A DNA stretch of 64,000 nt from a virus (IMGVR_UViG_3300011335_000809:32001-96000), one strand, 5' to 3'; counted from the stretch's first letter, positions 8,787 to 33,679 are shown. Notes: generated by a model not told the origin, from the sequence alone. A program made the numbers and translations.

Positions 8787-8805
8787 ATTTTATAAATATA
8801 AACTA

Positions 8806-12705: not shown

Positions 12706-12856
12706 ACTAATTTATACTTTAATATTTAAACGTGGTAATATACTCACAAGTTCTAAGATTACCAGCCTTAGAACATAATCTGATAATACATACAAATAAC
12801 ATCTGTGTCAACTTTATTTTAATCAACATTTATTTACATCTATATATTTATTAAAT

Positions 12857-17382: not shown

Positions 17383-17424
17383 TATATAAATATACATATT
17401 CAAAATATAAACTTTGAATAAAAA

Positions 17425-17809: not shown

Positions 17810-17838
17810 ATAAAATTTAAAAGAACTAAATATAAGTA

Positions 17839-19170: not shown

Positions 19171-19177
19171 AATAATT

Positions 19178-19251
19178 TGGAGCGGGTAGAGGGAATCGAA
19201 CCCTCACATCAACCTTGGCAAGGTCGAAGGCTACCACTACATCATACCCGC
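19178..19251 (-). tRNA. tRNA-Gly(GCC)
   Basis: Cloverleaf, loop TTGCCAA, CCA. Confidence 0.95.
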
Positions 19252-19303
19252 GATCTGAACATTAATATATAATCGAAACTAATCAACATACATTAATTTA
19301 AAA

Positions 19304-19378
19304 TGGTGGACCGTAAGAGAATCGAACTCTTCCCTAAAGCTTGCAAAGCTCCCGTGCTACCACTATCACTAACAGCCC
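19304..19378 (-). tRNA. tRNA-Ala(TGC)
   Basis: Loop TTTGCAA, G3:U70, CCA. Confidence 0.95.
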
Positions 19379-19673
19379 ATTTAAAAATCTTACACCAATA
19401 TATAGTGTTTGTCAAACTAAAAATCAAATTGTATGACTACGACTTGCGAATATACGAGGATTTCACTATACTTTGTTCCATATGTCTATCTCGTCAACTT
19501 CAGTCTCCTCTACCAGCTAATAGGTAGCGTGCTACAATTCTATACACAAATAGTCAAATCTAAAAATCAACCCTATCCTATCTGGATCAGATTCGTCCGG
19601 GTCAGACATACAGGGGTGTATCGTGTCCCTCACGCTGTTGGACGTTTCCACCCAACACGCACATTTACTAAAA

Positions 19674-19750
19674 TGGTCGGGATGACAGGACTTGCACCTG
19701 CAACTTCCTGACTCCAGATCAGGCCGTCTCCTAATTGACAATACACCCCG
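19674..19750 (-). tRNA. tRNA-Pro(TGG), atypical C33
   Basis: CCTGA-TCTGGAG-TCAGG anticodon arm, C1:G72, A73, CCA. Confidence 0.8.
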
Positions 19751-19754
19751 AAAA

Positions 19755-19862
19755 TGGTCAGCGTAGTGGGATTTTCACCTGTCATATAAACATCTCTTTC
19801 AAGCCACACTCATTGTTCCCGTTTCGTTGGGAAATGACTCTTTAATGTTGGTCTACACGCTG
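19755..19862 (-). ncRNA. tRNA-like RNA with aberrant anticodon/T region
   Basis: Acceptor CAGCGTG/TACGCTG-ACCA intact, interior expanded to about 108 nt. Confidence 0.55.
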
Positions 19863-19871
19863 ATTATAAAT

Positions 19872-19945
19872 TGGTTGGGGATGATGGAATCGAACCACCA
19901 CAAGCAGATTCAAAGTCTGCCGCACTACCATTATGCAAATCCCCA
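19872..19945 (-). tRNA. tRNA-Gln(TTG)
   Basis: GCAGA-CTTTGAA-TCTGC, CCA. Confidence 0.95.
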
Positions 19946-19951
19946 GTTAAA

Positions 19952-20839
19952 TTACTTTTCATAAAGATTGATAAAATCTTTTCCGTATTTTGATGTCACA
20001 TAATCAATATACATCTTAATTTTGTGTTTGTCAATCACATTTAATTTAAATGGAAAAGAATTTATTTTTGCTTTATTTTTATTATCTAAATAACCTTTTA
20101 TTTCAAAATATTCATTTGTTGATTCAAGAATAAAGTCTGGATAAAAATTATAATTGTTATTATTGAACTTATAGGGGAATCCCTCAGTATTTCTTTTAAA
20201 TTTTATATTATGTTCTAAATTGAAAATTACCCACGCCAATTCCCAACTGCTATTACAATAATAACCTTTATACCATCCTTGTTTACCTCTTCCGCCTTTT
20301 TCACGATAACCTCCTCGTTTACCTTTCAAAAGTCCGTTTACTTTTACATATGTATTTCTACAAATTTGAGAACAATATATCTGTTTTGATTTTTCTGTTT
20401 TTAAAAAATTGTAATTACAATGTGGACATAATATAGATTTACGTTTTTTTACTCTAATCTGTTTTTTTGCTAATTCAGATAATCTTTTTTTGCCTTCTAT
20501 GTCCCATTTTTTGTGACCTCCAAACTTTTGGTTTTCAATAGATGCACATTTTGTAGAACAAAATTTATTATTTCTTCTAGAATATTCTAAATCAATATTG
20601 CAATATTCACACTTATTTGGATTTAGATTATATTTTTCTACTCTAAATAGTTTTAAACGTGGTGAAATTGTTTCTCCATTAAACTCTACAGAACATTTAT
20701 TAGAACAAAAATGATTGTTAGTTCTTTTTATTTCACTTTTATATTTTAAAAACTCAATATTACATTTTTTACAATTTACTAATATTTTACTCATACTAAT
20801 AAATAGTAATTTTGGAGCGTAAAATGAATTTTGAATCAA
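19952..20839 (-). CDS. free-standing PD-(D/E)xK endonuclease with Zn-finger repeats (putative homing endonuclease); start probably at 20794
   Basis: CxxC...FCSxxC repeats; SSWE...YPDF...EIKG; lies inside tRNA array. Confidence 0.75.
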   Translation of the reverse strand: MIQNSFYAPKLLFISMSKILVNCKKCNIEFLKYKSEIKRTNNHFCSNKCSVEFNGETISPRLKLFRVEKYNLNPNKCEYCNIDLEYSRRNNKFCSTKCASIENQKFGGHKKWDIEGKKRLSELAKKQIRVKKRKSILCPHCNYNFLKTEKSKQIYCSQICRNTYVKVNGLLKGKRGGYREKGGRGKQGWYKGYYCNSSWELAWVIFNLEHNIKFKRNTEGFPYKFNNNNYNFYPDFILESTNEYFEIKGYLDNKNKAKINSFPFKLNVIDKHKIKMYIDYVTSKYGKDFINLYEK

Positions 20840-20856
20840 AATATTTTGTTTGATTC

Positions 20857-20931
20857 TGGTGCAGTAGGAGAGAATTGAACTCTCATTTCAAGTTTGGAAG
20901 ACTCACGTAATAGCCATTATACCACTACTGC
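20857..20931 (-). tRNA. tRNA-Gly(TCC)
   Basis: Loop CTTCCAA, CCA. Confidence 0.92.
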
Positions 20932-21016
20932 ATTTTAATAAATTATTAGATGTTCAGTCATCAAATATTTGATGTGTACTATGAACCACGGACAGGTAAT
21001 CTAATTTCTCATAGCG

Positions 21017-21106
21017 CGGAGGCGAAGGGTGCTGCCCCCTCAGTGGCTTTTAGACCACGGCAGTTTAGCAAACTGCTGTAGAAACCTGACTATCTACGTC
21101 ACCTCC
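21017..21106 (-). tRNA. tRNA-Ser(GCT), no encoded CCA
   Basis: GCAGT-TTGCTAA-ACTGC, long variable arm, G73. Confidence 0.9.
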
Positions 21107-21194
21107 ATAAAATCTTTTGACAAACTCCGATTTCTTCAAGAGACGATATTATCAGTCTTCGGTTCCATTGTCAAGTGGAGTTGTATTAAAAGAG

Positions 21195-21278
21195 CGGAAG
21201 CAGTAGGACTCGCACCTACGAGGGTTTATGGCCCCAGGCGTTTTCAAGACGCTTTCCTCGACTAACCGGACTACTTCC
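21195..21278 (-). tRNA. tRNA-Ser(TGA), no encoded CCA
   Basis: Loop CTTGAAA, long variable arm, G73. Confidence 0.9.
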
Positions 21279-21293
21279 ATATAAATTAAAAAT

Positions 21294-21378
21294 TGGTGGG
21301 CATAGAGGGACTTGAACCCCCACGGATTTCTCCACGAGCTTCTAAAGCTCGAACGGCTGCCAATTACGTCATATGCCC
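21294..21378 (-). tRNA. tRNA-Leu(TAG)
   Basis: CGAGC-TTTAGAA-GCTCG, variable arm, CCA. Confidence 0.95.
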
Positions 21379-21385
21379 AATAAAA

Positions 21386-21461
21386 TGGTCGGCTCGGTGC
21401 GACTCGAACGCACAATATCTTGTACCCAAAACAAGCGGAATAGCCATTATCCTACGAACCG
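21386..21461 (-). tRNA. tRNA-Pro(TGG)
   Basis: CTTGT-TTTGGGT-ACAAG, CCA. Confidence 0.93.
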
Positions 21462-21471
21462 ATATTAAAAA

Positions 21472-21547
21472 TGGTAGGTGGTATAGGATTTAAACCTATG
21501 ACATTTTGCGTGTAAAGCAAATGCTCTATCAACTGAGCTAACCACCC
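21472..21547 (-). tRNA. tRNA-Val(TAC)
   Basis: TTTGC-TTTACAC-GCAAA, CCA. Confidence 0.93.
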
Positions 21548-21577
21548 GTTTAAAAATTGTTATATACTTTATTTTAA

Positions 21578-21672
21578 TTATCGCCAGATGGGTTCTGTAT
21601 TTCAGCATAACACCCAGTGACCGATCAAATGTTTTAACTTATGTTGGGGACATCAGATAGAGTTTCAACCCC
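21578..21672 (-). ncRNA. conserved tRNA-array 5' leader RNA motif, copy 1
   Basis: Shares GGTGTTATGCTGAAATACAGAACC core and flanks with 31613-31741, with compensatory stem changes. Confidence 0.7.
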
Positions 21673-21687
21673 GTTCGTTATATTTCT

Positions 21688-21715
21688 AATTTACCATACT
21701 TCGTCAAATTGTCAA
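21688..21715 (-). promoter_or_regulatory. sigma70-type promoter for tRNA array 1
   Basis: TTGACA-N16-TAAATT. Confidence 0.7.
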
Positions 21716-21726
21716 CCATTAAAATC

Positions 21727-21760
21727 AAAAACCCGTCATTCTTTTTAAAAGTGACGGGTT
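21727..21760 (-). terminator. attenuator terminator 1
   Basis: ACCCGTCA...TGACGGGT followed by U-rich tail; 5' arm can alternatively pair with 21776-21787. Confidence 0.85.
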
Positions 21761-21787
21761 GTATATTTTTAGCAAACAACCACTCAC

Positions 21788-21841
21788 TCAACTTCCGGAT
21801 GGGAGTTGACTGGCTTGACTAGGTTGTGAAATTAAATTCAT
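21788..21841 (-). CDS. leader peptide 1, MNLISQPSQASQLPSGS
   Basis: 17-codon ORF after late-promoter-like TATATATT, just upstream of antiterminator/terminator; composition matches tRNA array 1. Confidence 0.75.
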   Translation of the reverse strand: MNLISQPSQASQLPSGS

Positions 21842-21919
21842 ATTCGTACTAATATATAGTGTTTGAAATTATAAATCAACAAAATTATTTAATAATTTTC
21901 AAATAAACTTCATTAAATT

Positions 21920-22873
21920 TTAGGATACTTTCTCAAATCCCGTCATATTAATTACGTTCAGGTTTTGACCAATAATAGCCTCTACTTGAGTTTTTCTACT
22001 GAGTAACCAAGCAAATGATCCAACTTTATACCACGCGCCCAATAGTGCCAATTCACTACCTACCTGCACAAATATTGGATTTCCAGAATCACCACCTCTT
22101 TGTGTCTCATAATACGACTGTGATGTGCCAAATACTGAAGCTTCTACATCAGCAACTGCATCAATTAATCGGGTCATATCTCCAATTGAAACTTTTTTGT
22201 CTTGATTGAGGAACAAAACAGGTAACCGTAAAGTTATGAATTGGACCCCCATCACACTATTAATTTCAGTTTTGATGTATTGTTGCCAGTTGTCTGGTAA
22301 TACTGAATATATCTTCAGACTACTATCAATTGATTGATCAAGAGTTCCAATTGCAATATCACTTCCATCAATCTTGTCGATCTTGATGATGTTGTATTTG
22401 AAGGTCACATTGTTATCGTTAACAAAAAAGATTTCTGAATTTGGCAAATAAGGAACGTGTGCAGACAATAAGACATGTTTATTAGTAATAAGAGTTCCAC
22501 CTCCAACACCACCGAGGCCATTTATACCAGCTGCAGTGCCTGTCCATTTATAAGATATCACCCAAGAAGCAGAATTTCGAACCCAAGAAAAAGTAGATTG
22601 GATAAACGCACTGAATAAACTACGGTCTTTGCTGGTCGCCATCATTTTGATCAGTGTGGATTTGATATTAGATACCCAGTTAGTACGTACACTACCACTA
22701 CTACCACTACTACCACCTATACCGCTACTACCAACTGTTTTACTAGATATCACTTTTGGTAACAATGCATTAGATATAAGTTTAGTTACTACAGATGTTG
22801 ATTGAAGAATTATTGTTTTTAATGAGGAAGTGCCTATTCCGCTACTACCACTTGATCCACTTGTCGATGCCAT
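21920..22873 (-). CDS. trypsin-like serine protease
   Basis: LLSAH, DIAIG, GGDSGNP catalytic triad motifs. Confidence 0.85.
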   Translation of the reverse strand: MASTSGSSGSSGIGTSSLKTIILQSTSVVTKLISNALLPKVISSKTVGSSGIGGSSGSSGSVRTNWVSNIKSTLIKMMATSKDRSLFSAFIQSTFSWVRNSASWVISYKWTGTAAGINGLGGVGGGTLITNKHVLLSAHVPYLPNSEIFFVNDNNVTFKYNIIKIDKIDGSDIAIGTLDQSIDSSLKIYSVLPDNWQQYIKTEINSVMGVQFITLRLPVLFLNQDKKVSIGDMTRLIDAVADVEASVFGTSQSYYETQRGGDSGNPIFVQVGSELALLGAWYKVGSFAWLLSRKTQVEAIIGQNLNVINMTGFEKVS

Positions 22874-22964
22874 AAAATAAACCTTTCGTTAATTATAAAT
22901 AGGTCATAAAAATAAAAAACCCGCTTATTTCTAAGCGGGATTATATACACTATTTTAGTTTAGA

Positions 22965-23663
22965 TTAAAATGTCAATCTCAAACCGCCGGAATATACTAC
23001 ATCGCCACTAAGTTCACGGGTAGCCCAATTATATTTAGTAGCATTAAAATTGTTGTCATACCATCCAGCACTTGCAAATGGAGTCAATACACCAAATGAA
23101 GTTTCAAAAGGACGAGTCACTGACAACTTTGCATTTACAGCTGTATAGTCTTCTACCTTACCATATTCAACAGCAGGAGTTACAACAAATCCAAATGGAA
23201 GTTTTTGAGCACGTTCTGCGCCAATAAACACACCACTTTGTTTCAAGTCTACATCATAAAATCCACGAAGATATGGTGTTACAAACTTATTTGGCAAAGC
23301 CAATTTAACACCAAATTCAGTACTATTTGGAATACCAAAGTTACCTGCTTGGTGACGAGTTACAGTTGTATCCAATCGTGCGGAAAATACATCCTTCCAT
23401 ACGTTTACTTCCTTGCCAGCACCCAGCGTCCAATGCGACTGATCTAGATCACCATTAGCCAATAGAGTACCACCCAAGTATACATCTGCATACTTCAGAC
23501 TCTTTACAGCACCTACACCAACAAATGCTGCGCCTTCAGAACGAGATACACCATTGACGATGTATTGGTTGTTATACCCAGCTTCAACTGAGATGTTTGA
23601 GGTGTCGCCTGCAGATACAGCCAAAGCGGCCAATACTGACAATAATACTAATACTTTCTTCAT
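22965..23663 (-). CDS. outer-membrane beta-barrel protein (host-like)
   Basis: Signal peptide, amphipathic beta strands, C-terminal GGLRLTF. Confidence 0.75.
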   Translation of the reverse strand: MKKVLVLLSVLAALAVSAGDTSNISVEAGYNNQYIVNGVSRSEGAAFVGVGAVKSLKYADVYLGGTLLANGDLDQSHWTLGAGKEVNVWKDVFSARLDTTVTRHQAGNFGIPNSTEFGVKLALPNKFVTPYLRGFYDVDLKQSGVFIGAERAQKLPFGFVVTPAVEYGKVEDYTAVNAKLSVTRPFETSFGVLTPFASAGWYDNNFNATKYNWATRELSGDVVYSGGLRLTF

Positions 23664-23819
23664 ATTTAACTATCCTTTATTTTGTTTATTTATGTTTACT
23701 ACCCACGTTAAGAACAGCTTAACGTTTATTTTGAAAAGACACTAAAATGTACTTTTCAGAATAATTTTTTATCAACTAATATATAGTTTTTATAATCTTA
23801 TTATAACTAATTTATTTAG

Positions 23820-24140
23820 TCAAACAGATTTTACCTTCTTGAGACGCTTGTTCAAAATCTTATCTTTTTCAGGCAAATAAACGTAAGAAGCCTTTAAACT
23901 ACGTTTACTTTCACCCAAAATAGACAACGTTTCTTCGTGAACGTCTAATGTTTCTAGTATTGTGCTCTTTACAAATCTAAAACTATCAGTGCCTACAACA
24001 TCAATACAGATACCATATGATAGATCTCTATATTGAACATCTGTTGCACCATACTTTGTACACAATACATCCTTGATTTTAGCCTTCTTGTCATTACTAA
24101 AGACTAAATTCGCCATATCAATTTTACTTAGTTCATTCAT
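23820..24140 (-). CDS. hypothetical protein
   Basis: 106 aa ORF with upstream TTGACA promoter. Confidence 0.6.
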   Translation of the reverse strand: MNELSKIDMANLVFSNDKKAKIKDVLCTKYGATDVQYRDLSYGICIDVVGTDSFRFVKSTILETLDVHEETLSILGESKRSLKASYVYLPEKDKILNKRLKKVKSV

Positions 24141-24243
24141 ACTATACTTTTATTATACTTGTTAACGGTTGATTGTCAATAAAAAATAAAACGATTAATT
24201 TTTACATCAATCGTTTTACTCCATTTAAATTTAAATCTATTTT

Positions 24244-24657
24244 TTACTTCTTTTTAAGCTTACCCATAAGCTTTTTGAGTTTGTCAGGCTGATGTGCTTG
24301 TAACCATTTAAAATAATCTTCCTTCTCTCTACGTGAAAGCTCACTGTCTCTATAAAGACCAGCATACTTCTTTACAATATCTCTAAAAGGATCTCCACTT
24401 TCATTTGTCTTCTTAAGTCTATCTATCTTGGATTTCAACATTTTCTTATAATTATCCAAAGAACCATAATCTTTTGCTCTACTTGGATCTGGATTTTTTA
24501 ACAACTTTTCCAAGTCAGCAATATCTTTATTCTTATCATTTTCAGAAAGATGTGCGGTTAATTCATCACTTTCAACTTCAGCAGCATTATCAAAATCTTC
24601 GTTTAATACTTCTCTTGTCAAACTTTTAATTAACTTCTTTAAATCATTTTTAGTCAT
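24244..24657 (-). CDS. putative head-packaged protein
   Basis: MTKNDLKKLIKSLTREVLNE N-terminal motif; TATTTATA upstream. Confidence 0.6.
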   Translation of the reverse strand: MTKNDLKKLIKSLTREVLNEDFDNAAEVESDELTAHLSENDKNKDIADLEKLLKNPDPSRAKDYGSLDNYKKMLKSKIDRLKKTNESGDPFRDIVKKYAGLYRDSELSRREKEDYFKWLQAHQPDKLKKLMGKLKKK

Positions 24658-24692
24658 ATGTTATAAATATAAATATTATTAATTAGCTACAT

Positions 24693-24863
24693 TTATTTTT
24701 CTTTTATACTATCACTCCAACCATTTCTATGTTTAAACATCCAATCCACTAACGCGGTCTCAAATCCTATATCAGTCCCTCTTTTTTCACTCTCTATCCA
24801 TTTGTGTATTTCTATCTCATTTTTTAATTGAAGAAACTTTTGATAGAGATTTGATTCGTTCAT
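24693..24863 (-). CDS. small protein MNESNLYQKF...EIHKWIESEKRGTDIGFETALVDW (DUF4032-like; not in ORF track)
   Basis: 56 aa ORF translated by hand; TATTTAT upstream; HKW.ESEK.G.DIGF motif. Confidence 0.7.
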   Translation of the reverse strand: MNESNLYQKFLQLKNEIEIHKWIESEKRGTDIGFETALVDWMFKHRNGWSDSIKEK

Positions 24864-24882
24864 ACACAAATAAATAGTATGA

Positions 24883-25353
24883 TTATTTAAGCGGTATATA
24901 CAAATCTCCTGTTAATCCTTTTTGAGTTAAATAATTAGCATCGCTAATCGCTAACGGACTCTTAATATAACCATATTTTTTACTCAATATTTTACGTAGT
25001 TCGTTACCAGCTAATTGTATCAAATCTAATTGTTCTTGTCCACCACTATTTTTAATTTTACCAGCAAGTCCAAACGGTAACATACGTTCATATTGTTTAT
25101 ACAAATTAATTATATCATTATAATGCGGCAACTCCAAGACAGGCCCTTTTAACTTAGTAGTTATTATTTGTTTACCAAATCGTTTAGCTACTTCTAAATT
25201 ATCCGTATGATTTGCTCCCAATGTAGCCACTAACTTGTCACCTGGCTTGGTGCTGTTGATACCCAACCCAACATTACCATACGCAGGATTAACACCTCTA
25301 TACACAGTCAATCCACCTGATTCTTCTTTCAATAAATCTTTTAATAATATCAT
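24883..25353 (-). CDS. putative head-packaged ART-like protein (start revised to MILLKDLLKEE)
   Basis: VYRG...TDNLEVAKRFG; tracked start overlaps tRNA-Cys. Confidence 0.5.
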   Translation of the reverse strand: MILLKDLLKEESGGLTVYRGVNPAYGNVGLGINSTKPGDKLVATLGANHTDNLEVAKRFGKQIITTKLKGPVLELPHYNDIINLYKQYERMLPFGLAGKIKNSGGQEQLDLIQLAGNELRKILSKKYGYIKSPLAISDANYLTQKGLTGDLYIPLK

Positions 25354-25375
25354 ATAGTAATAAATATATAAAAAA

Positions 25376-25466
25376 TGGAGCACGATCAAGGTTACGCTCC
25401 TTGCATATGTACTTTCATACAACGATGTTTTGCAGACATCTCAGTTCTCTAGCTCCGTCATCGTGC
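25376..25466 (-). tRNA. tRNA-Cys(GCA) with long variable arm
   Basis: GATGT-CTGCAAA-ACATC, U73, CCA, TGTA-TGAAAG-TACA variable stem. Confidence 0.8.
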
Positions 25467-25496
25467 TTTAAAAATGGAACCTATATAGGCATTAAA

Positions 25497-26300
25497 TCAT
25501 TCAGTATCATTTGTACCAAAAATACGCTTCCAAATTCCTATTCTTTTAGGTTTTACTTCGGATTTTTCTTCTTTAGGTTGATTATCTTTGTCCAACTTAA
25601 TGTGAACAGTTCGATTAGACATCCGCATCAATACCTCTGCACCTTTTGGCCACTCTCCCAATTTGTTCTTAAATTCATATCCATCTTTTTTCAGATTTAC
25701 TCTCAAATTTTGAGTCAAAAGAGCATTTTCTTTCTTCAACTCTTCTATGATCTTTTCATACTCTACTATCTTGTTCTTCAAAAAATCTCGTTCCTTTGTA
25801 AGCAATTCAATCTTAGATACAAGCTCATTTTGATCTTTATCAGTCTTTGCAACTTTAAGTTCATCACTCAAATCTACAATCTCTTTGGTCATACTAACAA
25901 GCGTATTGCGCAACGACTTTAAATCAGATTCAAGTGCAGATTTTTCTTGTGTCAAATCTTTGATCTTAACATCTTTTTCATCAGATGATACTTTCAACTG
26001 TTCAGTAATACTATTTAATTGAGTCATATTAGTATACAATATACTCAACTTATTATCATAACTCTTCAATAATACAGATAACTCCGTATTCTTTTGATTT
26101 AAATTGGTAATCAATAAACTTTGATTTACAACAATCTCTGTCTGGTTAACAACTTTCTTAGTTAACGCTTTATTATCTATATTCAATGAACTAAATAATG
26201 TATATAATCCAAAAGTTATTAATACAATTACAGCAATTATAACATATAATATCTTTTTATTAGTAACCGAAAATGTTTGGGGAGCGTTTGTAGATTCCAT
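25497..26300 (-). CDS. membrane-anchored coiled-coil protein
   Basis: N-terminal TM helix, long heptad repeats. Confidence 0.7.
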   Translation of the reverse strand: MESTNAPQTFSVTNKKILYVIIAVIVLITFGLYTLFSSLNIDNKALTKKVVNQTEIVVNQSLLITNLNQKNTELSVLLKSYDNKLSILYTNMTQLNSITEQLKVSSDEKDVKIKDLTQEKSALESDLKSLRNTLVSMTKEIVDLSDELKVAKTDKDQNELVSKIELLTKERDFLKNKIVEYEKIIEELKKENALLTQNLRVNLKKDGYEFKNKLGEWPKGAEVLMRMSNRTVHIKLDKDNQPKEEKSEVKPKRIGIWKRIFGTNDTE

Positions 26301-26366
26301 AAATTTATTTTATTATATATATAATCCACTGACATTTAAATATTTTTTTAAAATATAATATCAAAG

Positions 26367-26846
26367 TTACCAAGCCCTACATGACCAATATCTCGCTTTA
26401 GTACGTGGACCAGGATTATCACAATTGTGTCTTGCTCTAAAATTTTTTCTACGTGCTGGATTATTCTTTTTTATGGCCATTCTTTTACCTTTAGCTGAAG
26501 ATCCACCAAATCCAAAATTTACCTTAACCACTTTTCCGTTGGGATTTTTAACGTATACTTTAGATTTCTTAACATCACCTTGCATTGGTTTACCAAGGAT
26601 CACTTTACGACCATGATATTCTGCTTCACATAATGGTTGATTATATTCTCGCATGAATTGAACAAATTCTTTTACATCTCGTTCACTTTCAACATCATAT
26701 TCTTCTATATTGTCTTCATCTACAAAACCTTCTTTTTTAACACAGTTTGGTACCATTCTTCCGCCTTTTTCTTTCATACCAATTTGTTTATAAGAGTCCC
26801 AACACGCCTCTTCAATCTCATTTAAAAGTTCTTTTAACTTAATCAT
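26367..26846 (-). CDS. conserved phage protein (ARYWSC family), putative head-packaged
   Basis: MIKLKELLNE start; CWDSYKQIG..VPNCV; RARHNCD...KARYWSCRAW. Confidence 0.75.
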   Translation of the reverse strand: MIKLKELLNEIEEACWDSYKQIGMKEKGGRMVPNCVKKEGFVDEDNIEEYDVESERDVKEFVQFMREYNQPLCEAEYHGRKVILGKPMQGDVKKSKVYVKNPNGKVVKVNFGFGGSSAKGKRMAIKKNNPARRKNFRARHNCDNPGPRTKARYWSCRAW

Positions 26847-26885
26847 ATCTATAAATATACAAATTAAAATAAAACGTTTTAAAAA

Positions 26886-27081
26886 TGGCGATAGAGTTGG
26901 GAATCAAACCCAAACCTCAAGTTTTATTACCTTACTGGAGTTTATCGACGTGACAATCATAAGAATAATACATCTAAAATATAGGTTATTCCATAGTCGT
27001 CGTTTACATTTACCCAAATAAATTTGGATCATCCCAGCTACAGCTAACCTCTGTAACGTGCTTTCATTACACTACTCTATC
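26886..27081 (-). ncRNA. tRNA-framed RNA with about 120-nt insertion in the anticodon arm
   Basis: Perfect acceptor GATAGAG/CTCTATC-GCCA, D arm and T arm. Confidence 0.7.
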
Positions 27082-27087
27082 ATAAAA

Positions 27088-27164
27088 TGGCGCACCCGGA
27101 GGGACTCTAACCCCCAACCTTTCCGGTAGAAACGGATGGCTCTATACAATTGAGCTACGAGTGC
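27088..27164 (-). tRNA. tRNA-Arg(TCT)
   Basis: Loop TTTCTAC, CCA. Confidence 0.92.
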
Positions 27165-27241
27165 GTTAAAATGGTTAGTAACTGTTCTCACCAGTGATCA
27201 CTGAGTAAAAGGAATTGAACCCAACAATTACTAACAAAAAA

Positions 27242-27319
27242 TGGTTGTCCCGATTGGATTTGAACCAACGACCTTTGTGTTATCAACACACTGCTCTAAA
27301 CCAACTGAGCTACGGGACA
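27242..27319 (-). tRNA. tRNA-Ile(GAT)
   Basis: Loop TTGATAA, CCA. Confidence 0.95.
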
Positions 27320-27336
27320 ATTGAAAAATAATAATT

Positions 27337-28221
27337 TTGGCGATATTAAACATTCTCGTTCATATTTATAATTGTATGAAGAATATAACACCCACAGATA
27401 AAATTGTCAACTTAAAAAGTAGAGATCCAATTGAACTTGAATGTTACGAATGTAAATCAACTTATCAACACGCAAAACATCGTTATTTATGTTATAAACT
27501 TAAAGGAAAATTATCAGGATGTTTTTGCACACAAAAGTGTGCTATGACATACAAAAGTAAATTAAAAAATATAAATACTAACTGTGAATATTGTAAAAAA
27601 GATATTACTAAAAGTTTGAATCAATATAAAAAATCTAAATTGCATTTTTGCTCAACTTCTTGTTCCGCAACACATTGGAATAAAATTCACCATCCTATTA
27701 GGATAACAAAATCAAAAAGAACGGTAAAACTACCTATATTATTAACTTGTACAAATTGTTTAAATCAACATTATAGAAAATATTATAAATCAAGTAAAAG
27801 TGGTACCAATTTTTGTACTAGATCTTGTCAATCAATTTATGCAAATAAGACTTGGAATAAGTCTTCTAGGTTTGGAATAAATAAAAGTCGTTGTGAAACT
27901 ATATTAAAAAATATTATTTTAAATGAATTTCCAAATTTACAAATTATTGAAAATGATAGAACTACAATTAAAGGCGGATTAGAAATAGATTTACACATAC
28001 CAAGCAAAAATGTTGCAATTGAATTAAATGGTCCCTGTCATTATATTCCTATATTTGGTACAAAAGAACTAGAAAAAACACAAAATAAAGATTTATTAAA
28101 AATTGAATATTGTCAAAATAATAACATTAAACTTTTCGTAGTTAATGTGATGGGATTAAAAAATCAAATACAAACATTAACTGATGTATTTAATACTACA
28201 CTAAAATCACATTTAGTGTGA
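27337..28221 (+). CDS. Zn-finger endonuclease of the very-short-patch/DUF559-like PD-(D/E)xK type; start probably at 27376
   Basis: FCSxxC repeats; LEIDLHIP..AIELNGPCHY...DLLK; antisense insertion in tRNA array. Confidence 0.75.
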   Translation: MAILNILVHIYNCMKNITPTDKIVNLKSRDPIELECYECKSTYQHAKHRYLCYKLKGKLSGCFCTQKCAMTYKSKLKNINTNCEYCKKDITKSLNQYKKSKLHFCSTSCSATHWNKIHHPIRITKSKRTVKLPILLTCTNCLNQHYRKYYKSSKSGTNFCTRSCQSIYANKTWNKSSRFGINKSRCETILKNIILNEFPNLQIIENDRTTIKGGLEIDLHIPSKNVAIELNGPCHYIPIFGTKELEKTQNKDLLKIEYCQNNNIKLFVVNVMGLKNQIQTLTDVFNTTLKSHLV

Positions 28222-28224
28222 AAG

Positions 28225-28296
28225 CCCTCCATACGAGACTCGCACTCGTTACTACATCGTGACAGGATGTTATGATAACTCATTCAACAATGGAAG
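28225..28296 (-). tRNA. tRNA-Asp(GTC), no encoded CCA
   Basis: ACATC-CTGTCAC-GATGT, G73. Confidence 0.85.
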
Positions 28297-28460
28297 AAAA
28301 ATAAATTGGTGCTGTGCTCTCCACGCCGTCTCTGTGTTTTACCGAATGTACCGGTCGGCAGTCACTTATGGGGTCAGTTACCCATTACTAAATTGGCAGT
28401 TAGTTTAATGTGTCTTTACAGAAAAGATTTAACTACTAACTGTTCAGTGTTAGCTGAAGA

Positions 28461-28538
28461 TGGTGGATGCGGTGGGATTTGAACCCACAACCTTTCGGGT
28501 AAGAGCCGAATACTCTGATCCAGTTGAGTTACACATCC
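28461..28538 (-). tRNA. tRNA-Lys(CTT)
   Basis: TTCGG-CTCTTAC-CCGAA, CCA. Confidence 0.93.
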
Positions 28539-28765
28539 ATAAAAAATTGTATCTAATATTGTCAACGAACTATAATCATCTTACCACACTTTATTCTTCC
28601 GTCAACAACTTTCTTAAAAAATATTCTGAACAAATCAACTTTATTTGAGTGGTAGCTGCACCCACTCTCCGTATTCCCAAATTAACCGTCTGGCCACATT
28701 CAAGGGCTTTCACTTGGATAGTTGATACCGGAGTATAGTGTTGTCTTCACCTAGTTCAGAAAAAA

Positions 28766-28883
28766 TGGTGGGCTACGACTGGACTTTCACCAGTAAACGA
28801 TACAACCTTTCACTCAGGAACATACCCTCCTTCGGTTATATCAGCGGAGTCATCGCCGTGTCTTATATTTCCACCACACGCCC
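28766..28883 (-). ncRNA. tRNA-framed RNA with expanded anticodon arm
   Basis: GGGC.../GCCC-ACCA ends, D stem GTG/CAC, T arm ACTGG-TGAAAGT-CCAGT. Confidence 0.6.
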
Positions 28884-29154
28884 ATAAAAAAATCTTAATG
28901 TCGCTCACGTACTGCGACTCTCACGGCCTCATAATGCGATGTGCGGGTGGCCGTTGTGCATTCAAACAAATCTACCTCGCCTACTTTTTACGATATTGAA
29001 CTGATTTAGCGACTGTTGTACCTGTTCGGCCCTTCCACCGACTCACGTTTTTTATGGTTGCCCATCGCATTGTTATACAACAGTTTTATTTTCAGCGTTT
29101 ACGTATATCCTTAGTTATCTTGATATGTTTCGTATATACACCAATTAAGAAAAA

Positions 29155-29230
29155 TGGTCCCAGTTGTTGGTTCCGCCCCAACCTCTATTCGTCTTCAGCG
29201 AATCGCTTTCACTAGGTTAGCTTAACTGGG
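29155..29230 (-). tRNA. tRNA-Phe(GAA)
   Basis: ATTCG-CTGAAGA-CGAAT, CCA. Confidence 0.88.
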
Positions 29231-29330
29231 ATTATAAATTAAATTGACAAGTCAAAGGAATCGAACCTTTTCGGCACAGCATCACTGCACCTTTACCACG
29301 CCCTGCGCACTAGCACCTGTCAAAATCACG

Positions 29331-29477
29331 ATGTATGGTTGGATTCGAACCAACGGCTACTTTTACAACCATTAACATATAATTAATGGAATTTTTATTT
29401 ATTACAACCTAACATAAGATTTTTACGGGCTTACCCCATAGTTAGGTACTCTGCTCTGCCAACTGAGCTACATACAA
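29331..29477 (-). ncRNA. tRNA-framed RNA with about 75-nt insertion
   Basis: Canonical D arm GCTCAGTTGGCAGAGC and T arm GTTGG-TTCGAAT-CCAAC; TGTATG/CATACA acceptor. Confidence 0.65.
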
Positions 29478-29486
29478 TGTTTAAAA

Positions 29487-29572
29487 TGGTGGGGTATGTA
29501 GGTAATGCGCCTACCGAGCCTTTCAGCGCCAGATTTACAGTCTGGACCATCTCTTTAATGGTATAATACCCC
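29487..29572 (-). tRNA. tRNA-Tyr(GTA)
   Basis: CCAGA-CTGTAAA-TCTGG, variable arm, CCA. Confidence 0.92.
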
Positions 29573-29703
29573 GAAAAATTTAACGTCATATGTTTGTTTC
29601 ACCATATGACGGTGACTGAGGTTCTTCTTTCACCGTTACGTTCTAGTTATCCTCACCTATGCACAGGTAGAACGGCATTAGTCACTTCAGAAGACTTATA
29701 AAA

Positions 29704-29779
29704 TGGCTCCAAGAGAGGGCAACGATCCCCCAACCTTTCGGGTAACAACCGAATGCTCTACCAATTGAGCTATCTTGGA
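29704..29779 (-). tRNA. tRNA-Asn(GTT)
   Basis: TTCGG-TTGTTAC-CCGAA, CCA. Confidence 0.93.
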
Positions 29780-29894
29780 ATTAAAAATTAAAAATGTTTA
29801 CTGGATTTCAACGAACGTTCCATCTACTAATCATAACCTCGTCAGATTATAACATTCAATGTCTATCAGTGTCAATACATTACTTACTACTTCA

Positions 29895-29968
29895 ACTATT
29901 GATTCAGATTCGAACTGAATTACTCCCGCTTATTCGTGCGGTTGTTTTACCAATTAAACTACGTTCGT
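29895..29968 (-). pseudogene. degenerate tRNA (D and T arms intact, acceptor unpaired)
   Basis: GTTTAATTGGTAAAAC and TTCAG-TTCGAAT-CTGAA; 8-nt anticodon loop. Confidence 0.55.
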
Positions 29969-29995
29969 TGCCTTCACCTAATGTATTTGAAAAAA

Positions 29996-30070
29996 TGGCA
30001 AAGTGGGTGGGTAACGCTCCCACATAAAGCAGTTTTGGAGACTGCTGCATTTCTTGTCTGCCACCACCTT
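29996..30070 (-). tRNA. tRNA-Trp(CCA)
   Basis: GCAGT-CTCCAAA-ACTGC, G73, CCA. Confidence 0.9.
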
Positions 30071-30129
30071 GTTAAAATGGTATCTCCACCGTTAATATTT
30101 CAGTGGCCGTACCTGTTACTCTCTGTAAA

Positions 30130-31200
30130 TTACGAAATTAATGTTGTTGATTCAGATTTTTTCTTTGCTTCTCTAACAGAGACATAATTGATGGTATTTT
30201 CAATTGAAATACCCACTTGTTCCGAAAGACGCAATCCACGATAATATTTTGTAGGAATTCCAACATACTCACTCATAGCTATTTCTTTACGTGTATCCTT
30301 GATAAATTTCATATTTTGAATTGGATACAAATTGTTATATCCAATTGAAGTTAGAATTCCATTACCAAATAAGTTCATATGATAATCCGTAATTACATTG
30401 TAATATTTAACTTCTTCCATCACTACACTCTTTTTTATCAAGATTATTTCTTCACCTTTTACATTAAATGTAATAGTGCCAATCGGTGTATCACTTGTCA
30501 TCGGATAAGTAAATTTACCAGCCTGTTTATTAAAAATACGATGTTGTACAATTGTCTTTAAATAAGAACCATCACTAAATTCCAATAGATTGTATTTGGT
30601 TGTTACTTCTGGCTGCTTTATATACAAAGGTTTTGCCGTATCAAACTTCGCTTCGTCAAAATTCCACACAATAATATCGTCGATATAATCAATGTCTTCA
30701 ATTGCTTTGGTTGTACCATCTGACAATGATACCAAAGTGCCTTCTGCTAAACACACAGAAACATATATCGATATATCTGTACCATATGCTGTTCCATTAA
30801 CATTTGTTGCAAATGCTCTAATATAGACTAGACCATTTGTTGGGCTTATGTTCTGATTGCTACACGAAAATGATCCAATTGAAGCCGTAGGATCCACATA
30901 AGCGGAATCTGTTGGAAGTGTTGGGTTTGGAGAATTGCTTGCTACGAATCCTCTAGATAATATCGGTGAATTTCCATCAGATACTACTGTTCCTACGGCG
31001 CTAAAGTCGTAAAAAGCGCCGCCACTAGCACTATCTGTGGTCACGACTGGCAGTAGCGCCTGTAACGCCGATTCTTCTTGTTGTGCACCACCTGCAATTT
31101 GTTCTTCATATCCTCGCATCATTTTGGAATAATTTTGCATTATTTCGTGTAAGGGTAACTTTTCTTTGTTCTGTTGATAATAAGTCTGCCAATGTATCAT
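30130..31200 (-). CDS. FN3-like plus Hint-domain protein
   Basis: YIRAFATNVNGTAYG; CLAEGTLVSLSDG...YYNVITDYHMNLFGNGILTS. Confidence 0.7.
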   Translation of the reverse strand: MIHWQTYYQQNKEKLPLHEIMQNYSKMMRGYEEQIAGGAQQEESALQALLPVVTTDSASGGAFYDFSAVGTVVSDGNSPILSRGFVASNSPNPTLPTDSAYVDPTASIGSFSCSNQNISPTNGLVYIRAFATNVNGTAYGTDISIYVSVCLAEGTLVSLSDGTTKAIEDIDYIDDIIVWNFDEAKFDTAKPLYIKQPEVTTKYNLLEFSDGSYLKTIVQHRIFNKQAGKFTYPMTSDTPIGTITFNVKGEEIILIKKSVVMEEVKYYNVITDYHMNLFGNGILTSIGYNNLYPIQNMKFIKDTRKEIAMSEYVGIPTKYYRGLRLSEQVGISIENTINYVSVREAKKKSESTTLIS

Positions 31201-31230
31201 ACATATATATATCCACCAACAATACTAAAA

Positions 31231-31305
31231 TGGTAGCCTATGCCGGTGCTGCCCCGGCTACTCTTGGATGAAAGCCAAGTGACTTAGCTGGTTGTCGAAT
31301 AGGCC
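31231..31305 (-). tRNA. tRNA-Glu(TTC)
   Basis: CTTGG-CTTTCAT-CCAAG, CCA. Confidence 0.9.
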
Positions 31306-31312
31306 ATTAAAT

Positions 31313-31390
31313 TGGTGCTTCAGTGAGGATTCGAACCCCAAACTCAATGTCCGTAGCATTGCGTGATATATCCATTTTCACCACTGAAGC
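31313..31390 (-). tRNA. tRNA-Arg(ACG)
   Basis: CAATG-CTACGGA-CATTG, CCA. Confidence 0.93.
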
Positions 31391-31396
31391 ATAAAT

Positions 31397-31472
31397 TGGG
31401 GTGATATACGAGTGCTGCCCTCGTTCCGTGAGTTTCACAAACTCAAATGCTAACTGTTACACCAATATCACC
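31397..31472 (-). tRNA. tRNA-His(GTG)
   Basis: TGAGT-TTGTGAA-ACTCA, G-1:C73, CCA. Confidence 0.92.
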
Positions 31473-31484
31473 ATTACTATAAAT

Positions 31485-31560
31485 TGGAGCCGAAGACAGG
31501 ACTTGAACCTGCAACCTGAACTTTACAAAAGTCCTGCTCTGCCAATTGAGCTACTTCGGC
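31485..31560 (-). tRNA. tRNA-Thr(TGT)
   Basis: Loop TTTGTAA, CCA. Confidence 0.95.
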
Positions 31561-31612
31561 GGTCTAAATTTTCTTTGCTTATTTACTTATAACAATAACC
31601 TCAGTTATGTTA

Positions 31613-31741
31613 TTATCGCCCTATAGGTTCTGTATTTCAGCATAACACCTACGGACCAATCAATTGATTTTCCCAGTTCTCACCTTATCATCGGTCTTTC
31701 CGACTCACTGGCGGAGGCTCAACAGATGGAGTTTCAAGCCC
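31613..31741 (-). ncRNA. conserved tRNA-array 5' leader RNA motif, copy 2
   Basis: Homologous to 21578-21672, with an inserted hairpin. Confidence 0.7.
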
Positions 31742-31758
31742 TTCCTTTATCTTCTATC

Positions 31759-31876
31759 AGTCTATCATAACTTTCGTCATTGTCAACCGACTTTTAAAAT
31801 TTCTTTTTCATCATCCAATGAACTACTACCTTCGTTCACTGTTTAACTACTTTACCACACCTTCAAAGAACGTCAA
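31759..31876 (-). promoter_or_regulatory. two tandem sigma70-type promoters for tRNA array 2
   Basis: TTGACA-N16-TAGACT (31759-31786) and TTGACG-N16-TAAAGT (31849-31876). Confidence 0.7.
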
Positions 31877-31886
31877 CCACAAAAAT

Positions 31887-31917
31887 AAAAAAACCGTCAC
31901 TTTTTAGTGTGACGGTT
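31887..31917 (-). terminator. attenuator terminator 2
   Basis: AACCGTCAC-loop-GTGACGGTT plus U tract; 5' arm can alternatively pair with 31953-31966. Confidence 0.85.
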
Positions 31918-31948
31918 GATATTGTTTTGAAGTTACCTAAGTTTGAGT

Positions 31949-32026
31949 CTATACAATATCACCGCCAACACATTCACAATTCGTAAATGTATCCCAACGT
32001 TTAATATGTGTATACTGTACTCTCAT
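31949..32026 (-). CDS. leader peptide 2, MRVQYTHIKRWDTFTNCECVGGDIV
   Basis: 25-codon ORF after TATATATT; contains all 12 amino acids of tRNA array 2; last codons form the antiterminator strand. Confidence 0.8.
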   Translation of the reverse strand: MRVQYTHIKRWDTFTNCECVGGDIV

Positions 32027-32306
32027 TATATTAATATATATTATCAAATTTACTAAACGTCAAGAATTTTTATTGCTAAAATTCTTTATAACTTTATACA
32101 AACTATAAAAACAATATGTTGTTAATACTGTCAAAGCACTAACTCCTAGACTCATTCCTATAGTCACTACCCACCCAATTATATTACGTTGTTCTTCACT
32201 CAATGTAAACATATCTCAGAATATATACTCGATCATTAATCATTAAACTTAATATATTAAATTAAAATTATAACCACTTATTACATCAATTCTATCTATA
32301 TTAGTT

Positions 32307-32975
32307 ATGCATAATTTTACAATAGATTACACAGACGGCCTCAAAATAGACAACAACTTTTATGACACAGAATTTGCCGCCGGAAAAGAATCTCACTATA
32401 TGGTCAAAACTTATTTTTGTCACAAAAAAATAAAACGTAGCCTGCAAACACATCCAGATCAATTGGGCATAACCGCAACAATCGAAGAACTAGAATCCAC
32501 TTCAAACAAAACAATACTCACATCAAACAATTGCAATTTGGGATGTTGGCTTATACCAAGTTTCTCAAAATTCTTTGTGCCATATCACATAGACATTTAT
32601 TATAACAAAGAATTGTATCAATCAGATACACTCGACTGTAAATTCAAATTGGTCAACTTCACTCTTCATCCAAAAGATGATCGTGAACTATACACATGGA
32701 TGAATGTTATAGAAAATTTTAAAAAACAAATGCAATGCGACATATCCATAAAAAATGATACAGTCGCTTCTACCACAGAATTTGACCACATCGCAGATGT
32801 AAAATATAAAACCGATGATGTAAATAAACAATACTATCTGGGCCTACACATAGGCAGATTCTACCAACCCAATACCAATATGCCAGATATAAACTATCAC
32901 CCAGATCAATTACATAACAAAAATTCGCTGGACATCATCAATGATATACTATACTACTACACTACCATAATTTAA
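32307..32975 (+). CDS. hypothetical protein
   Basis: 222 aa ORF. Confidence 0.65.
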   Translation: MHNFTIDYTDGLKIDNNFYDTEFAAGKESHYMVKTYFCHKKIKRSLQTHPDQLGITATIEELESTSNKTILTSNNCNLGCWLIPSFSKFFVPYHIDIYYNKELYQSDTLDCKFKLVNFTLHPKDDRELYTWMNVIENFKKQMQCDISIKNDTVASTTEFDHIADVKYKTDDVNKQYYLGLHIGRFYQPNTNMPDINYHPDQLHNKNSLDIINDILYYYTTII

Positions 32976-32985
32976 AATATACCAT

Positions 32986-33666
32986 ATGCACAATACAGTA
33001 TTAATGATACTATCAGTCAGAAATTCCAAAAGCTTCGAAGAATCAGTTAATAAACTACAGTGTGAAAAAATTTGGTTCAAAGGATATAGAGAACACGAAT
33101 TGTCCCCAATAGTAAACGATTTCGTACGAAATTCAAATTTCGAAAATTATTTTATCACACCAGATGACTTGATAATAAAACCTCACCAATTCGAAAAATT
33201 AAAATTATCATTAAATCACAATGACATAGTATCAGGATGGGGAGTGATACGCCAAAATTGTACACACACCACTATCACCAAACCACACAACTTTTTACAA
33301 ACAAATATATTCAAACACCAATTCACATCACACGGTTTCAAAAATCAACAATACAACTTTTCATACAAAACTCACGAAATTAACTCGCTTCCAAACGAAA
33401 TAGAAACCGCATTCACAGGATGGTTTTATACAGGTATGAAAAAACACATATGGACTCAATATCCATACGAATGCCTAAACCCTCCATTCGCAAGCTCAGA
33501 CCTGATGTTTAGTAGACGAGTTTTATTCGATAACAAATATAAACAAATTTGCATCAAAAGCGCAAACGTTATACACCTGTCCAACTCAACCACAATGCCA
33601 ACCGATAAATCATTCTTCGATATGTCTACATGCTTCTCAAATAAATCAATAACCAAAACCTTCTAA
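32986..33666 (+). CDS. glycosyltransferase-like protein
   Basis: YFITPDD (DxD-like), DIVSGW, SDLMFS, HL. Confidence 0.5.
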   Translation: MHNTVLMILSVRNSKSFEESVNKLQCEKIWFKGYREHELSPIVNDFVRNSNFENYFITPDDLIIKPHQFEKLKLSLNHNDIVSGWGVIRQNCTHTTITKPHNFLQTNIFKHQFTSHGFKNQQYNFSYKTHEINSLPNEIETAFTGWFYTGMKKHIWTQYPYECLNPPFASSDLMFSRRVLFDNKYKQICIKSANVIHLSNSTTMPTDKSFFDMSTCFSNKSITKTF

Positions 33667-33679
33667 TTAACACCACACG

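Follow-up and report, generated by a model that had tools for sequence, protein, structure and literature searches.

Candidate leader-peptide attenuators with codon contents matched to two phage tRNA arrays

The 64,000-nucleotide (nt) stretch of freshwater phage DNA IMGVR_UViG_3300011335_000809:32001-96000 (the window, from whose first base all coordinates are counted) carries two arrays of transfer RNA (tRNA) genes on its minus strand, and each of these is preceded by a compact cassette with a short open reading frame (ORF) and an intrinsic terminator. Array 1 serves the amino acids V, P, L, S, G, Q and A (set 1), while array 2 together with a nearby tRNA-Cys serves T, H, R, E, W, N, Y, F, K, D, I and C (set 2), and the codons of each short ORF mirror the set encoded behind it. 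Each array therefore appears to be headed by a ribosome-mediated transcription attenuator that would report the supply of that tRNA set, a reading to which we give a probability of about 0.6 on the strength of sequence comparison. An earlier sequence-only reading had proposed leader-peptide attenuators matched to the arrays, and this core is supported by the conservation of the ORF with its start and stop codons, by an amino-acid split specific to the reading frame, by residues that change place and are nevertheless retained, and by covariation within the alternative pairing (2:3) of the leader transcripts. The parts, their conservation, the frame-specific split in composition and the co-varying 2:3 complementarity follow directly from the sequence and its comparison with relatives.

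The window comprises bases 32001-96000 of a 115.6-kb virus record with a G+C content of ~33%. Against the GenBank phages in INPHARED, DNA matches were only tRNA-sized and revealed no close relative, and a tblastn search with a 961-amino-acid (aa) protein of the phage gave no match; relatives were therefore sought through DNA motifs. The family was located in IMG/VR by a 22-mer of a conserved leader RNA and then by further motifs, the shorter of which mostly yielded chance matches that were filtered with nhmmer, and a metagenome scan added at least 120 stretches from freshwater and some marine samples. From the IMG/VR and metagenome relatives (denoted by L numbers below), 88 distinct leader DNAs were extracted. 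They encode 18 distinct short peptides resembling leader 1 (type 1, 5 clusters) and 37 resembling leader 2 (type 2, 10 clusters), ~55 together, and since variants within one type are homologous, these counts are not independent.

Leader cassettes and their codon content

The leader promoters and ORFs are located as follows.

21851..21879, minus strand: leader 1 promoter, TTGATT, 17 nt, TATATT (in TATATATT); ATG 9 nt past the -10 box, no Shine-Dalgarno sequence
21841-21788, minus strand: leader ORF 1, 17 codons and TGA
32033..32063, minus strand: leader 2 promoter, TTGACG, 17 nt, TATATA (in TATATATT); ATG 6-8 nt past the -10 box, no Shine-Dalgarno sequence
32026-31949, minus strand: leader ORF 2, 25 codons and TAG, with all 12 array-2 amino acids within codons 2-19

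Directly upstream of both arrays the same order of parts can be read, as the sequence-only reading had described it: a promoter, a short ORF lacking a Shine-Dalgarno sequence, an intrinsic terminator, one or two sigma70-type promoters, a leader RNA and the tRNAs. Its description of the first promoter as late-promoter-like finds no support, as the enrichment of TATATATT is mild (20 matches, with 13.4 expected) and both leader promoters have a TTGA-type -35 box 17 nt upstream; they look like sigma70-type promoters with an extended -10 box and not like specifically late ones. In the relatives, the leader 1 promoter keeps its -35/-10 spacing and a gap of 8-9 nt to the ATG with a variable spacer sequence, and the leader 2 promoter keeps TTGAYR together with a TG directly 5′ of the -10 box.

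Most long ORFs of the phage, tail-fibre-like genes included, are likewise devoid of a Shine-Dalgarno sequence, and their start codons lie 5-9 nt beyond a TATTTATA or TATATATT box (for example at 12841-12859 and 32212-32227), for which reason leaderless or near-leaderless messenger RNAs (mRNAs) seem to be the norm in this phage. Early-looking genes have a TTGACTTT..TATTCT promoter equally near the ATG. The short leader ORFs share the start context of the long genes, and they keep it in all relatives. More than 100 metagenomic relatives share the ORF, its start context and the placement of its stop codon, which is the conservation that the sequence-only reading had proposed to look for. Leader ORF 1 has 17 codons throughout its close cluster and 17-24 codons in the divergent clusters. 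The terminator stems of leaders 1 and 2 differ by one base pair, which suggests that the cassettes are paralogues, one having been duplicated and the leaders having then diverged towards their own arrays.

The tRNA genes behind the cassettes begin with tRNA-Val from 21547 in array 1 and tRNA-Thr from 31560 in array 2.

19178..21547, minus strand: tRNA array 1, with Val, Pro, Leu, Ser(TGA), Ser(GCT), Gly(TCC), an HNH ORF, Gln, a tRNA-like RNA, a weak Pro, Ala and Gly(GCC)
27088..31560, minus strand: tRNA array 2, with Thr, His, Arg(ACG), Glu, an ORF, Trp, a tRNA-like RNA, Asn, Tyr, a tRNA-like RNA, an Ile(GAT)-like gene, Phe, Lys(CTT), Asp, an HNH ORF on the plus strand, Ile and Arg(TCT)
25376..25466, minus strand: tRNA-Cys(GCA), 91 nt, 1.6 kb downstream of array 2 and in the same relative place in relatives

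The array contents given by the sequence-only reading (V,P,L,S,S,G,Q,P,A,G and T,H,R,E,W,N,Y,F,K,D,I,R,C) are correct, with the remarks that the second Pro scores 25.9 bits, under the Rfam cut-off, and that Cys sits 1.6 kb past Arg(TCT), behind two ORFs. The division of the leaders that it had noted is likewise borne out. In leader 1, 14 of the 16 residues after Met belong to {V,P,L,S,G,Q,A}, with L, S, Q, P, A and G represented, while leader 2 has every one of the 12 set-2 amino acids and is free of S, P, L and A. Leader 2 also covers both Arg codon families, AGA (anticodon TCT) and CGT (ACG). Fifteen of its codons 2-19 are readable by array-2 tRNAs or tRNA-Cys, the exceptions being GTA and CAG, which array 1 serves, and AAA. 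Such contents are rare within the phage itself: all 12 array-2 amino acids occur together in only 3 of 22,883 24-residue windows of its own proteins, and among 522 small ORFs of the genome (15-30 aa, six frames) one has 12/12 and two have at least 87.5% set-1 residues. Random partitions into 7 + 12 amino acids match both leaders equally well in 0.55% of cases by summed share and in 0.14% by coverage.

The split persists across the 5 type-1 and 10 type-2 sequence clusters. On the side of the genes, it is kept in 15 type-1 and 26 type-2 leader/array combinations, counting the relatives and the window, and in all 15 type-1 combinations the array is restricted to tRNAs of set 1 (V, P, L, S, G, Q and A). 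The cluster-weighted presence in type-1 leaders is 1.0 for P, S and Q,.98 for L,.90 for V,.80 for G and.78 for A, against 0 for H and W,.05 for F and.2 for T, D and C. The type-2 values are 1.0 for T, N, Y, F and K,.98 for C,.95 for R, D and I,.90 for H and E and.85 for W, against.05 for P,.06 for Q,.22 for A,.25 for L and.32 for S. The difference in presence between the leader types separates the 19 amino acids perfectly by array (1 in 50,388 partitions), the lowest set-1 difference (Gly, -0.08) lying above the highest set-2 difference (Asn, -0.22). All 12 set-2 amino acids are kept by 31 of the 37 distinct type-2 variants. The divergent type-1 clusters as a rule have all 7 set-1 amino acids; the leaders of L267, L299, L310 and L108 are quite different in sequence, yet contain all seven each.

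The signal is confined to the annotated frame. For type 1, own-set residues have a share of.84 in the annotated frame and of.44 and.43 in the two alternative frames; for type 2 the corresponding shares are.79,.51 and.63. Coverage is 11.8 in frame against 6.5 and 6.3, and the split is absent from the other two reading frames of the leader DNAs and from nucleotide shuffles. Furthermore, His, Tyr, Asn, Asp, Cys, Glu and Arg, which occur singly, shift position between type-2 lineages (L249/L355, L366, L245, L071) yet are retained. When non-conserved positions were filled by simulation from the amino-acid usage of the phage, the observed coverage had p values of 6e-4 (L249), 7e-4 (L366), 0.015 (L245) and 0.016 (L210). 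A reading of the variants also indicates that a lost codon-2 AGA is usually offset by another AGA further on.

Where arrays have decayed, the leaders have lost residues as well. With an array reduced to T,N,Y,H, the L345 leader lacks R, W, D and I, and with one reduced to T,Y, the L286 leader lacks H and W; these losses are compatible with relaxed constraint. In L243 neither a tRNA-Glu in the array nor a Glu codon in the leader is found. Across the phages as a whole, the presence and absence of amino acids in leader and array vary little and the tRNA calls are imperfect, and examples both for and against a match are found.

Alternative RNA structures and the proposed mechanism

The elements of the putative switch are numbered in order of transcription.

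21822..21827, minus strand: segment 1 of leader 1 (ACAACC, codons 5-7), complementary to GGTTGT of segment 2, with its partner in the minimum-free-energy (MFE) fold at 21775-21780; invariant in relatives
21775..21790, minus strand: segment 2 of leader 1, beginning at the stop codon; its 2:3 duplex with the terminator 5′ strand has -16.4 kcal/mol (shuffle p 0.015)
21721..21762, minus strand: segment 3 of leader 1 (ACAACC and the stem 5′ strand), intrinsic terminator hairpin of 8-9 base pairs (bp) with a 13-nt loop, and T-run; the terminator itself lies at 21759-21721
31953..31968, minus strand: segment 2 of leader 2 (last six codons); its duplex with segment 3 has -17.9 kcal/mol, with 0 of 200 shuffles as good
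31885..31925, minus strand: segment 3 of leader 2 (ACAATATC-A-ACCGTCAC), terminator hairpin of 9 bp with an 8-nt loop, and T-run; the terminator itself lies at 31917-31885

The alternative antiterminator and terminator structures which the sequence-only reading had seen in the window recur throughout, the stretch around the stop codon being able to pair with the terminator 5′ strand and its flank in 88/88 leader DNAs. The energies of this 2:3 duplex range from -10.2 to -25.4 kcal/mol, all but one being -12.6 or stronger, and the duplex mostly equals or beats the terminator hairpin (-7 to -15 kcal/mol), with shuffle p values mostly at or below 0.01. Its position relative to the stop codon is 0 to +15 in type 1 and -19 to -2 or -11 to +8 in type 2, which is always within reach of a ribosome at the stop codon. 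At least four unrelated classes of type-1 terminator exist, with stems starting CCCGTCA, CCGTTGG, CCCATCA and CCCACCA, and in each of them the best or nearly best fit of segment 2 is to its own terminator. In type 2, segment 2 is read in two frames across the lineages, the peptide ending in D-I-V or in G-G, with the stop always in or next to the segment. Because the same nucleotides are read in two frames, the tail appears to be kept as RNA, with the end point of translation as the constraint. The residues of leader 2 that fall outside its set (V, G, A, M) are mostly located in this RNA-constrained tail, the own-set share being.90 before it and.63 within.

Folding with a ribosome mask produced a switch in 5/8 leaders. 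A mask over early codons drops the terminator probability to 0-0.26 in five relatives, whereas without a mask or with one at the stop codon it is 0.8-1.0 in four of these five; in L071 it is 0.27 unmasked and 0.99 with the stop-codon mask. In MFE folds segment 2 is mostly paired, and an inner hairpin is maintained by compensatory changes (CAAC/GTTG versus CAAT/ATTG). Rfam searches over both regions returned no leader, riboswitch or T-box family, the STnc240 matches on the terminators being sub-threshold only.

Between the terminators and the first tRNAs, promoters and a leader RNA are present in both cassettes.

21715-21688, minus strand: array 1 promoter, sigma70-type, TTGACA, 16 nt, TAAATT, TG before the -10 box; conserved in all relatives
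31876-31849 and 31786-31759, minus strand: two array 2 promoters, sigma70-type, TTGACG..TAAAGT and TTGACA..TAGACT, both with TG; conserved in relatives
21576..21673, minus strand: two-hairpin leader RNA, copy 1, between the array 1 promoter and tRNA-Val
31611..31742, minus strand: two-hairpin leader RNA, copy 2, in which an additional hairpin is inserted, between the array 2 promoter and tRNA-Thr

The two-hairpin leader RNA is found in all relatives and matches no Rfam family. Its loops are invariant, and 6 of 18 predicted pairs have compensatory changes on both sides in 34 sequences; our guess is a signal for processive antitermination or for processing of the array transcript. River and lake metatranscriptome assemblies contain parts of the arrays, and the contigs X16 record 7 (21468-21814) and X17 record 21 (31587-31934) bridge the terminator, promoter and leader RNA, which is a hint of expression only, since such contigs cannot show RNA ends or levels, prove read-through or exclude carry-over of DNA, and stretches without coverage carry no information.

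In the proposed mechanism, the sigma70-type leader promoter would start a leaderless mRNA at or 1-2 nt from the ATG of the 17- or 25-codon ORF. A ribosome that translates the ORF as far as its stop codon would cover segment 2, letting the terminator fold, and the transcript would end ~30-40 nt further on. If the ribosome were to stall earlier, at a codon with scarce tRNA, segment 2 would stay free and pair with the emerging terminator 5′ strand, so that RNA polymerase would pass the downstream promoter and the leader RNA into the tRNA genes. Since leader 1 is composed in the codons of V/P/L/S/G/Q/A and leader 2 in those of T/H/R/E/W/N/Y/F/K/D/I/C, the state of each cassette would reflect how well the amino acids of its own array can be decoded; a drop in that capacity would add array transcription, the net effect being a negative feedback on tRNA supply. 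We infer that the ORFs are translated and that such stalling and switching would operate in vivo, read-through rising upon tRNA shortage; candidate triggers would be starvation, a host tRNA pool that decays in the course of infection, or tRNA-cleaving defences of the host (anticodon nucleases). Because strong promoters are situated between the terminators and the tRNAs, the attenuators can only add to array transcription and not gate it alone.

Several observations weigh against this reading. Beyond each terminator lie the conserved, consensus-grade sigma70-type promoters, so the stretch between attenuator and genes is not promoter-free and the arrays would be transcribed irrespective of the attenuator. 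At equilibrium, the two leaders of the window keep the terminator under every mask (P 0.6-1.0), and the L249 fold does not switch either; as the terminator is the more stable helix, the switch in the leaders of the window would have to be kinetic. In the Escherichia coli trp leader the terminator is likewise the more stable structure by classical energy estimates, and the choice is kinetic. The 1:2 (anti-antiterminator) duplex is not better than shuffles in most lineages (p 0.03-0.7), and the leader-2 codons for N, C and E lie at most ~5 codons from segment 2, where a stalled ribosome may itself mask that segment. The correspondence of codons and genes is also imperfect: the Lys codon of leader 2 is AAA and the tRNA-Lys of the array has the anticodon CTT, L006 has a Glu codon and no tRNA-Glu, L327 a tRNA-His and no His, and the L185 type a tRNA-Cys and no Cys, while residues of the other set are common in both types, Val and Gly being found in nearly every type-2 leader and Asn or Lys in many of type 1. 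The relatives L339 and L294 have the leader RNA and the array without the short ORF. Finally, in L015 (~8800-9000), L251, L336 and L356 the type-1 leader is the in-frame C-terminal tail of an ORF of 35-98 aa. The long ORF of L251 contains at least six tandem copies of an 18-nt unit encoding V-T-V-S-Q-P.

Competing explanations and known systems

The geometry of the cassettes and the 2:3 covariation would suit any ribosome-dependent switch, and the attenuators might consequently sense general translation capacity or the timing of infection, through ribosome availability or ribosome-polymerase coupling, with the codon bias only securing decoding by the phage's own tRNAs. The prevalence of single codons over runs, which implies weak sensitivity to any one tRNA, and the constitutive promoters downstream of the terminators fit such a device. 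It would have no need for an array-specific composition, yet the paralogous cassettes have diverged to opposite, array-matching sets, and full coverage is kept despite the relocation of residues; we consider this explanation unlikely, though it is the strongest of the competitors. Somewhat less probable still is that the ORFs are ordinary very small genes for functional micropeptides, with their own promoter and terminator, which stand before the tRNA promoters by chance, the terminator insulating the arrays. Their start context is indeed identical to that of real genes, the longer ORFs of some relatives share the same tail, and there are conserved peptide motifs, among them the cores I-K-R-W and T-F-T. 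Against a micropeptide stand a C-terminal part conserved as RNA and read in two frames in different lineages, an inventory that is kept while the order of residues changes, a segment 2 that co-varies with the terminator and a composition mirroring the neighbouring array in both cassettes.

The strong structure of the transcripts (z about -4), the very high nucleotide conservation of the type-1 core and the compensatory changes in the inner hairpin would all be expected if the promoter-to-terminator units were small non-coding RNAs or RNA-only switches with incidental open frames. This we regard as slightly more doubtful than a micropeptide, because the frame, ATG and stop positions are kept across lineages that differ in length and insertions, the composition signal is restricted to the annotated frame, and the Ser, Ala and Gly codons vary in the third position. 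It appears most improbable that the short ORFs are what is left of a longer, decaying gene upstream that ended at a normal terminator, with the concordance being a coincidence amplified by shared ancestry. The long-ORF forms and the homology among variants of one type are in line with this idea, but the two leader types are mutually unrelated in sequence and each still matches its own array, the promoter stands directly before the short ATG in dozens of lineages, the chance tests made on the window alone are independent of the relatives, and relocation with retention argues for ongoing selection.

Full-text literature searches turned up no description of tRNA genes, whether of phages or of cells, under the control of an attenuator or a leader peptide of any kind, in agreement with the sequence-only reading, which knew of no attenuation for phage tRNA arrays. 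As read here, the cassettes are a known attenuation mechanism applied to a new class of genes, the tRNA genes. The enterobacterial leader attenuators include trp, his, leu, pheA and, for a synthetase, pheST, and some are multivalent, such as thr (Thr and Ile) and ilvGMEDA (Ile/Leu/Val). The phage cassettes resemble them in that a short ORF enriched in the relevant codons precedes an intrinsic terminator, whose 5′ strand can alternatively pair in an upstream helix that excludes the terminator. In both, the stop codon is placed where a terminating ribosome would mask segment 2, and the terminator is more stable than the antiterminator, so that the choice would be kinetic. They differ in preceding tRNA genes instead of biosynthetic enzymes, in representing each of their 7 or 12 amino acids by one or two codons instead of having runs for one to three, in the apparently leaderless mRNA and the strong promoters between terminator and genes, and in that two paralogous cassettes divide the code over two arrays. 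None of the Rfam leader families matches them.

T-box riboswitches of Gram-positive bacteria, which control synthetase and amino-acid genes, bind uncharged tRNA directly without translation. They are similar to the phage cassettes in that a choice between terminator and antiterminator reports tRNA status, whereas in the phage an ORF overlaps the switch. A T-box was rejected, with no Rfam RF00230 match over 17000-34000 at E up to 1-10. The nearest case appears to be the long tRNA operon (trn) of Anabaena sp. PCC 7120, which is silent under standard culture conditions until translational stress induces it (PMC8421152). As proposed for the phage arrays, it is an accessory tRNA array whose transcription rises when translation is impaired, but it is cellular and plasmid-borne, and its control is exerted by a protein, the ribbon-helix-helix repressor TrcR, whose target is the promoter (PMC10272220). 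The text of PMC10272220 uses none of the terms leader peptide, attenuation and terminator.

Phage tRNAs figure in three accounts as an escape from host tRNA-cleaving defences (PMC10264068, PMC11555353, PMC12409363), and such defences are a plausible reason for a phage to watch its tRNA supply. The subject of PMC10264068 is anticodon-loop changes in phage tRNAs, and the terms attenuat-, leader, terminator and promoter do not occur in its text. The abstracts of PMC11555353 and PMC12409363 describe no control over the expression of phage tRNAs.

Array genes, genome setting and biological implications

With default settings ARAGORN reports only 16 tRNAs for both arrays. Rfam, relaxed ARAGORN and a custom cloverleaf scan add His, Glu, Tyr, Phe and Cys, and Ser(TGA) and Ser(GCT) of array 1 were recognised by eye. 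ARAGORN misses several genes because their T-loops are odd (e.g. GGCAGCA) or because CCA is not encoded. In tRNA-His (31400-31471), tRNA-Glu (31231-31306) and tRNA-Ser(GCT) (21011-21097), all on the minus strand, the T-loop is GGCAGCA or GCAGCAC in place of the canonical TTCRANY, which is the reason why standard finders overlook them. The second Ile(GAT)-like tRNA (29245-29321, minus strand) has an unusual D arm and is 88-94% conserved in relatives. Four tRNA-like RNAs on the minus strand (29330-29477, 26883-27079, 19755-19862 and 29900-29972) have acceptor and T arms, but they carry large insertions or have no recognisable anticodon arm or acceptor stem. Of these four, three end in CCA or ACCA, and those at 29900-29972 and 29330-29477 are 77-100% conserved in relatives.

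The arrays are interrupted by ORFs at 19952-20839 (minus), 27337-28221 (plus) and 30130-31200 (minus), two of which are HNH/homing endonuclease-like by PHROGs, the third (356 aa) having no family match. Consensus-grade sigma70-type promoters on the minus strand at 19387-19415, 21146-21174, 28578-28605 and 29846-29875 lie inside the arrays, which therefore appear to consist of several transcription units. Just downstream of array 1 is a transfer-messenger RNA (tmRNA) gene (17425-17809, minus strand; Rfam RF00023, 106 bits) that ARAGORN does not call, and the relative L243 also has one (123 bits). Across the phage, matches in PHROGs and Pfam are limited to HNH endonucleases, tail-fibre-like domains, a methyltransferase and a helicase. 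As related contigs span up to 250-296 kb, the 115.6-kb record may be part of a larger phage genome.

A broader picture can be offered tentatively, at slightly less than even odds: large phages would divide their tRNA genes into blocks under "codon-inventory" leaders, duplicated cassettes evolving codons that mirror the tRNAs behind them, so that loss of decoding through host shut-off or tRNA-cleaving defences could be detected and repaired block by block. The two-hairpin RNA might then be a second layer of control, for example in processive antitermination or processing of the array transcript.

The cassette family is abundant in freshwater metagenomes and in some marine ones. If the attenuation reading is true, it would be the first attenuation system known for tRNA genes, with a loop running from tRNA shortage through stalling to more tRNA transcription. 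Its attenuators would read 7-12 amino acids via single codons, unlike the textbook runs of codons, and would provide compact natural sensors of decoding capacity for synthetic biology. For the phages themselves, the codon list of a leader would name the decoding capacities that the phage treats as limiting, and would give a handle on the 50-year-old question of the purpose and timing of phage tRNAs.

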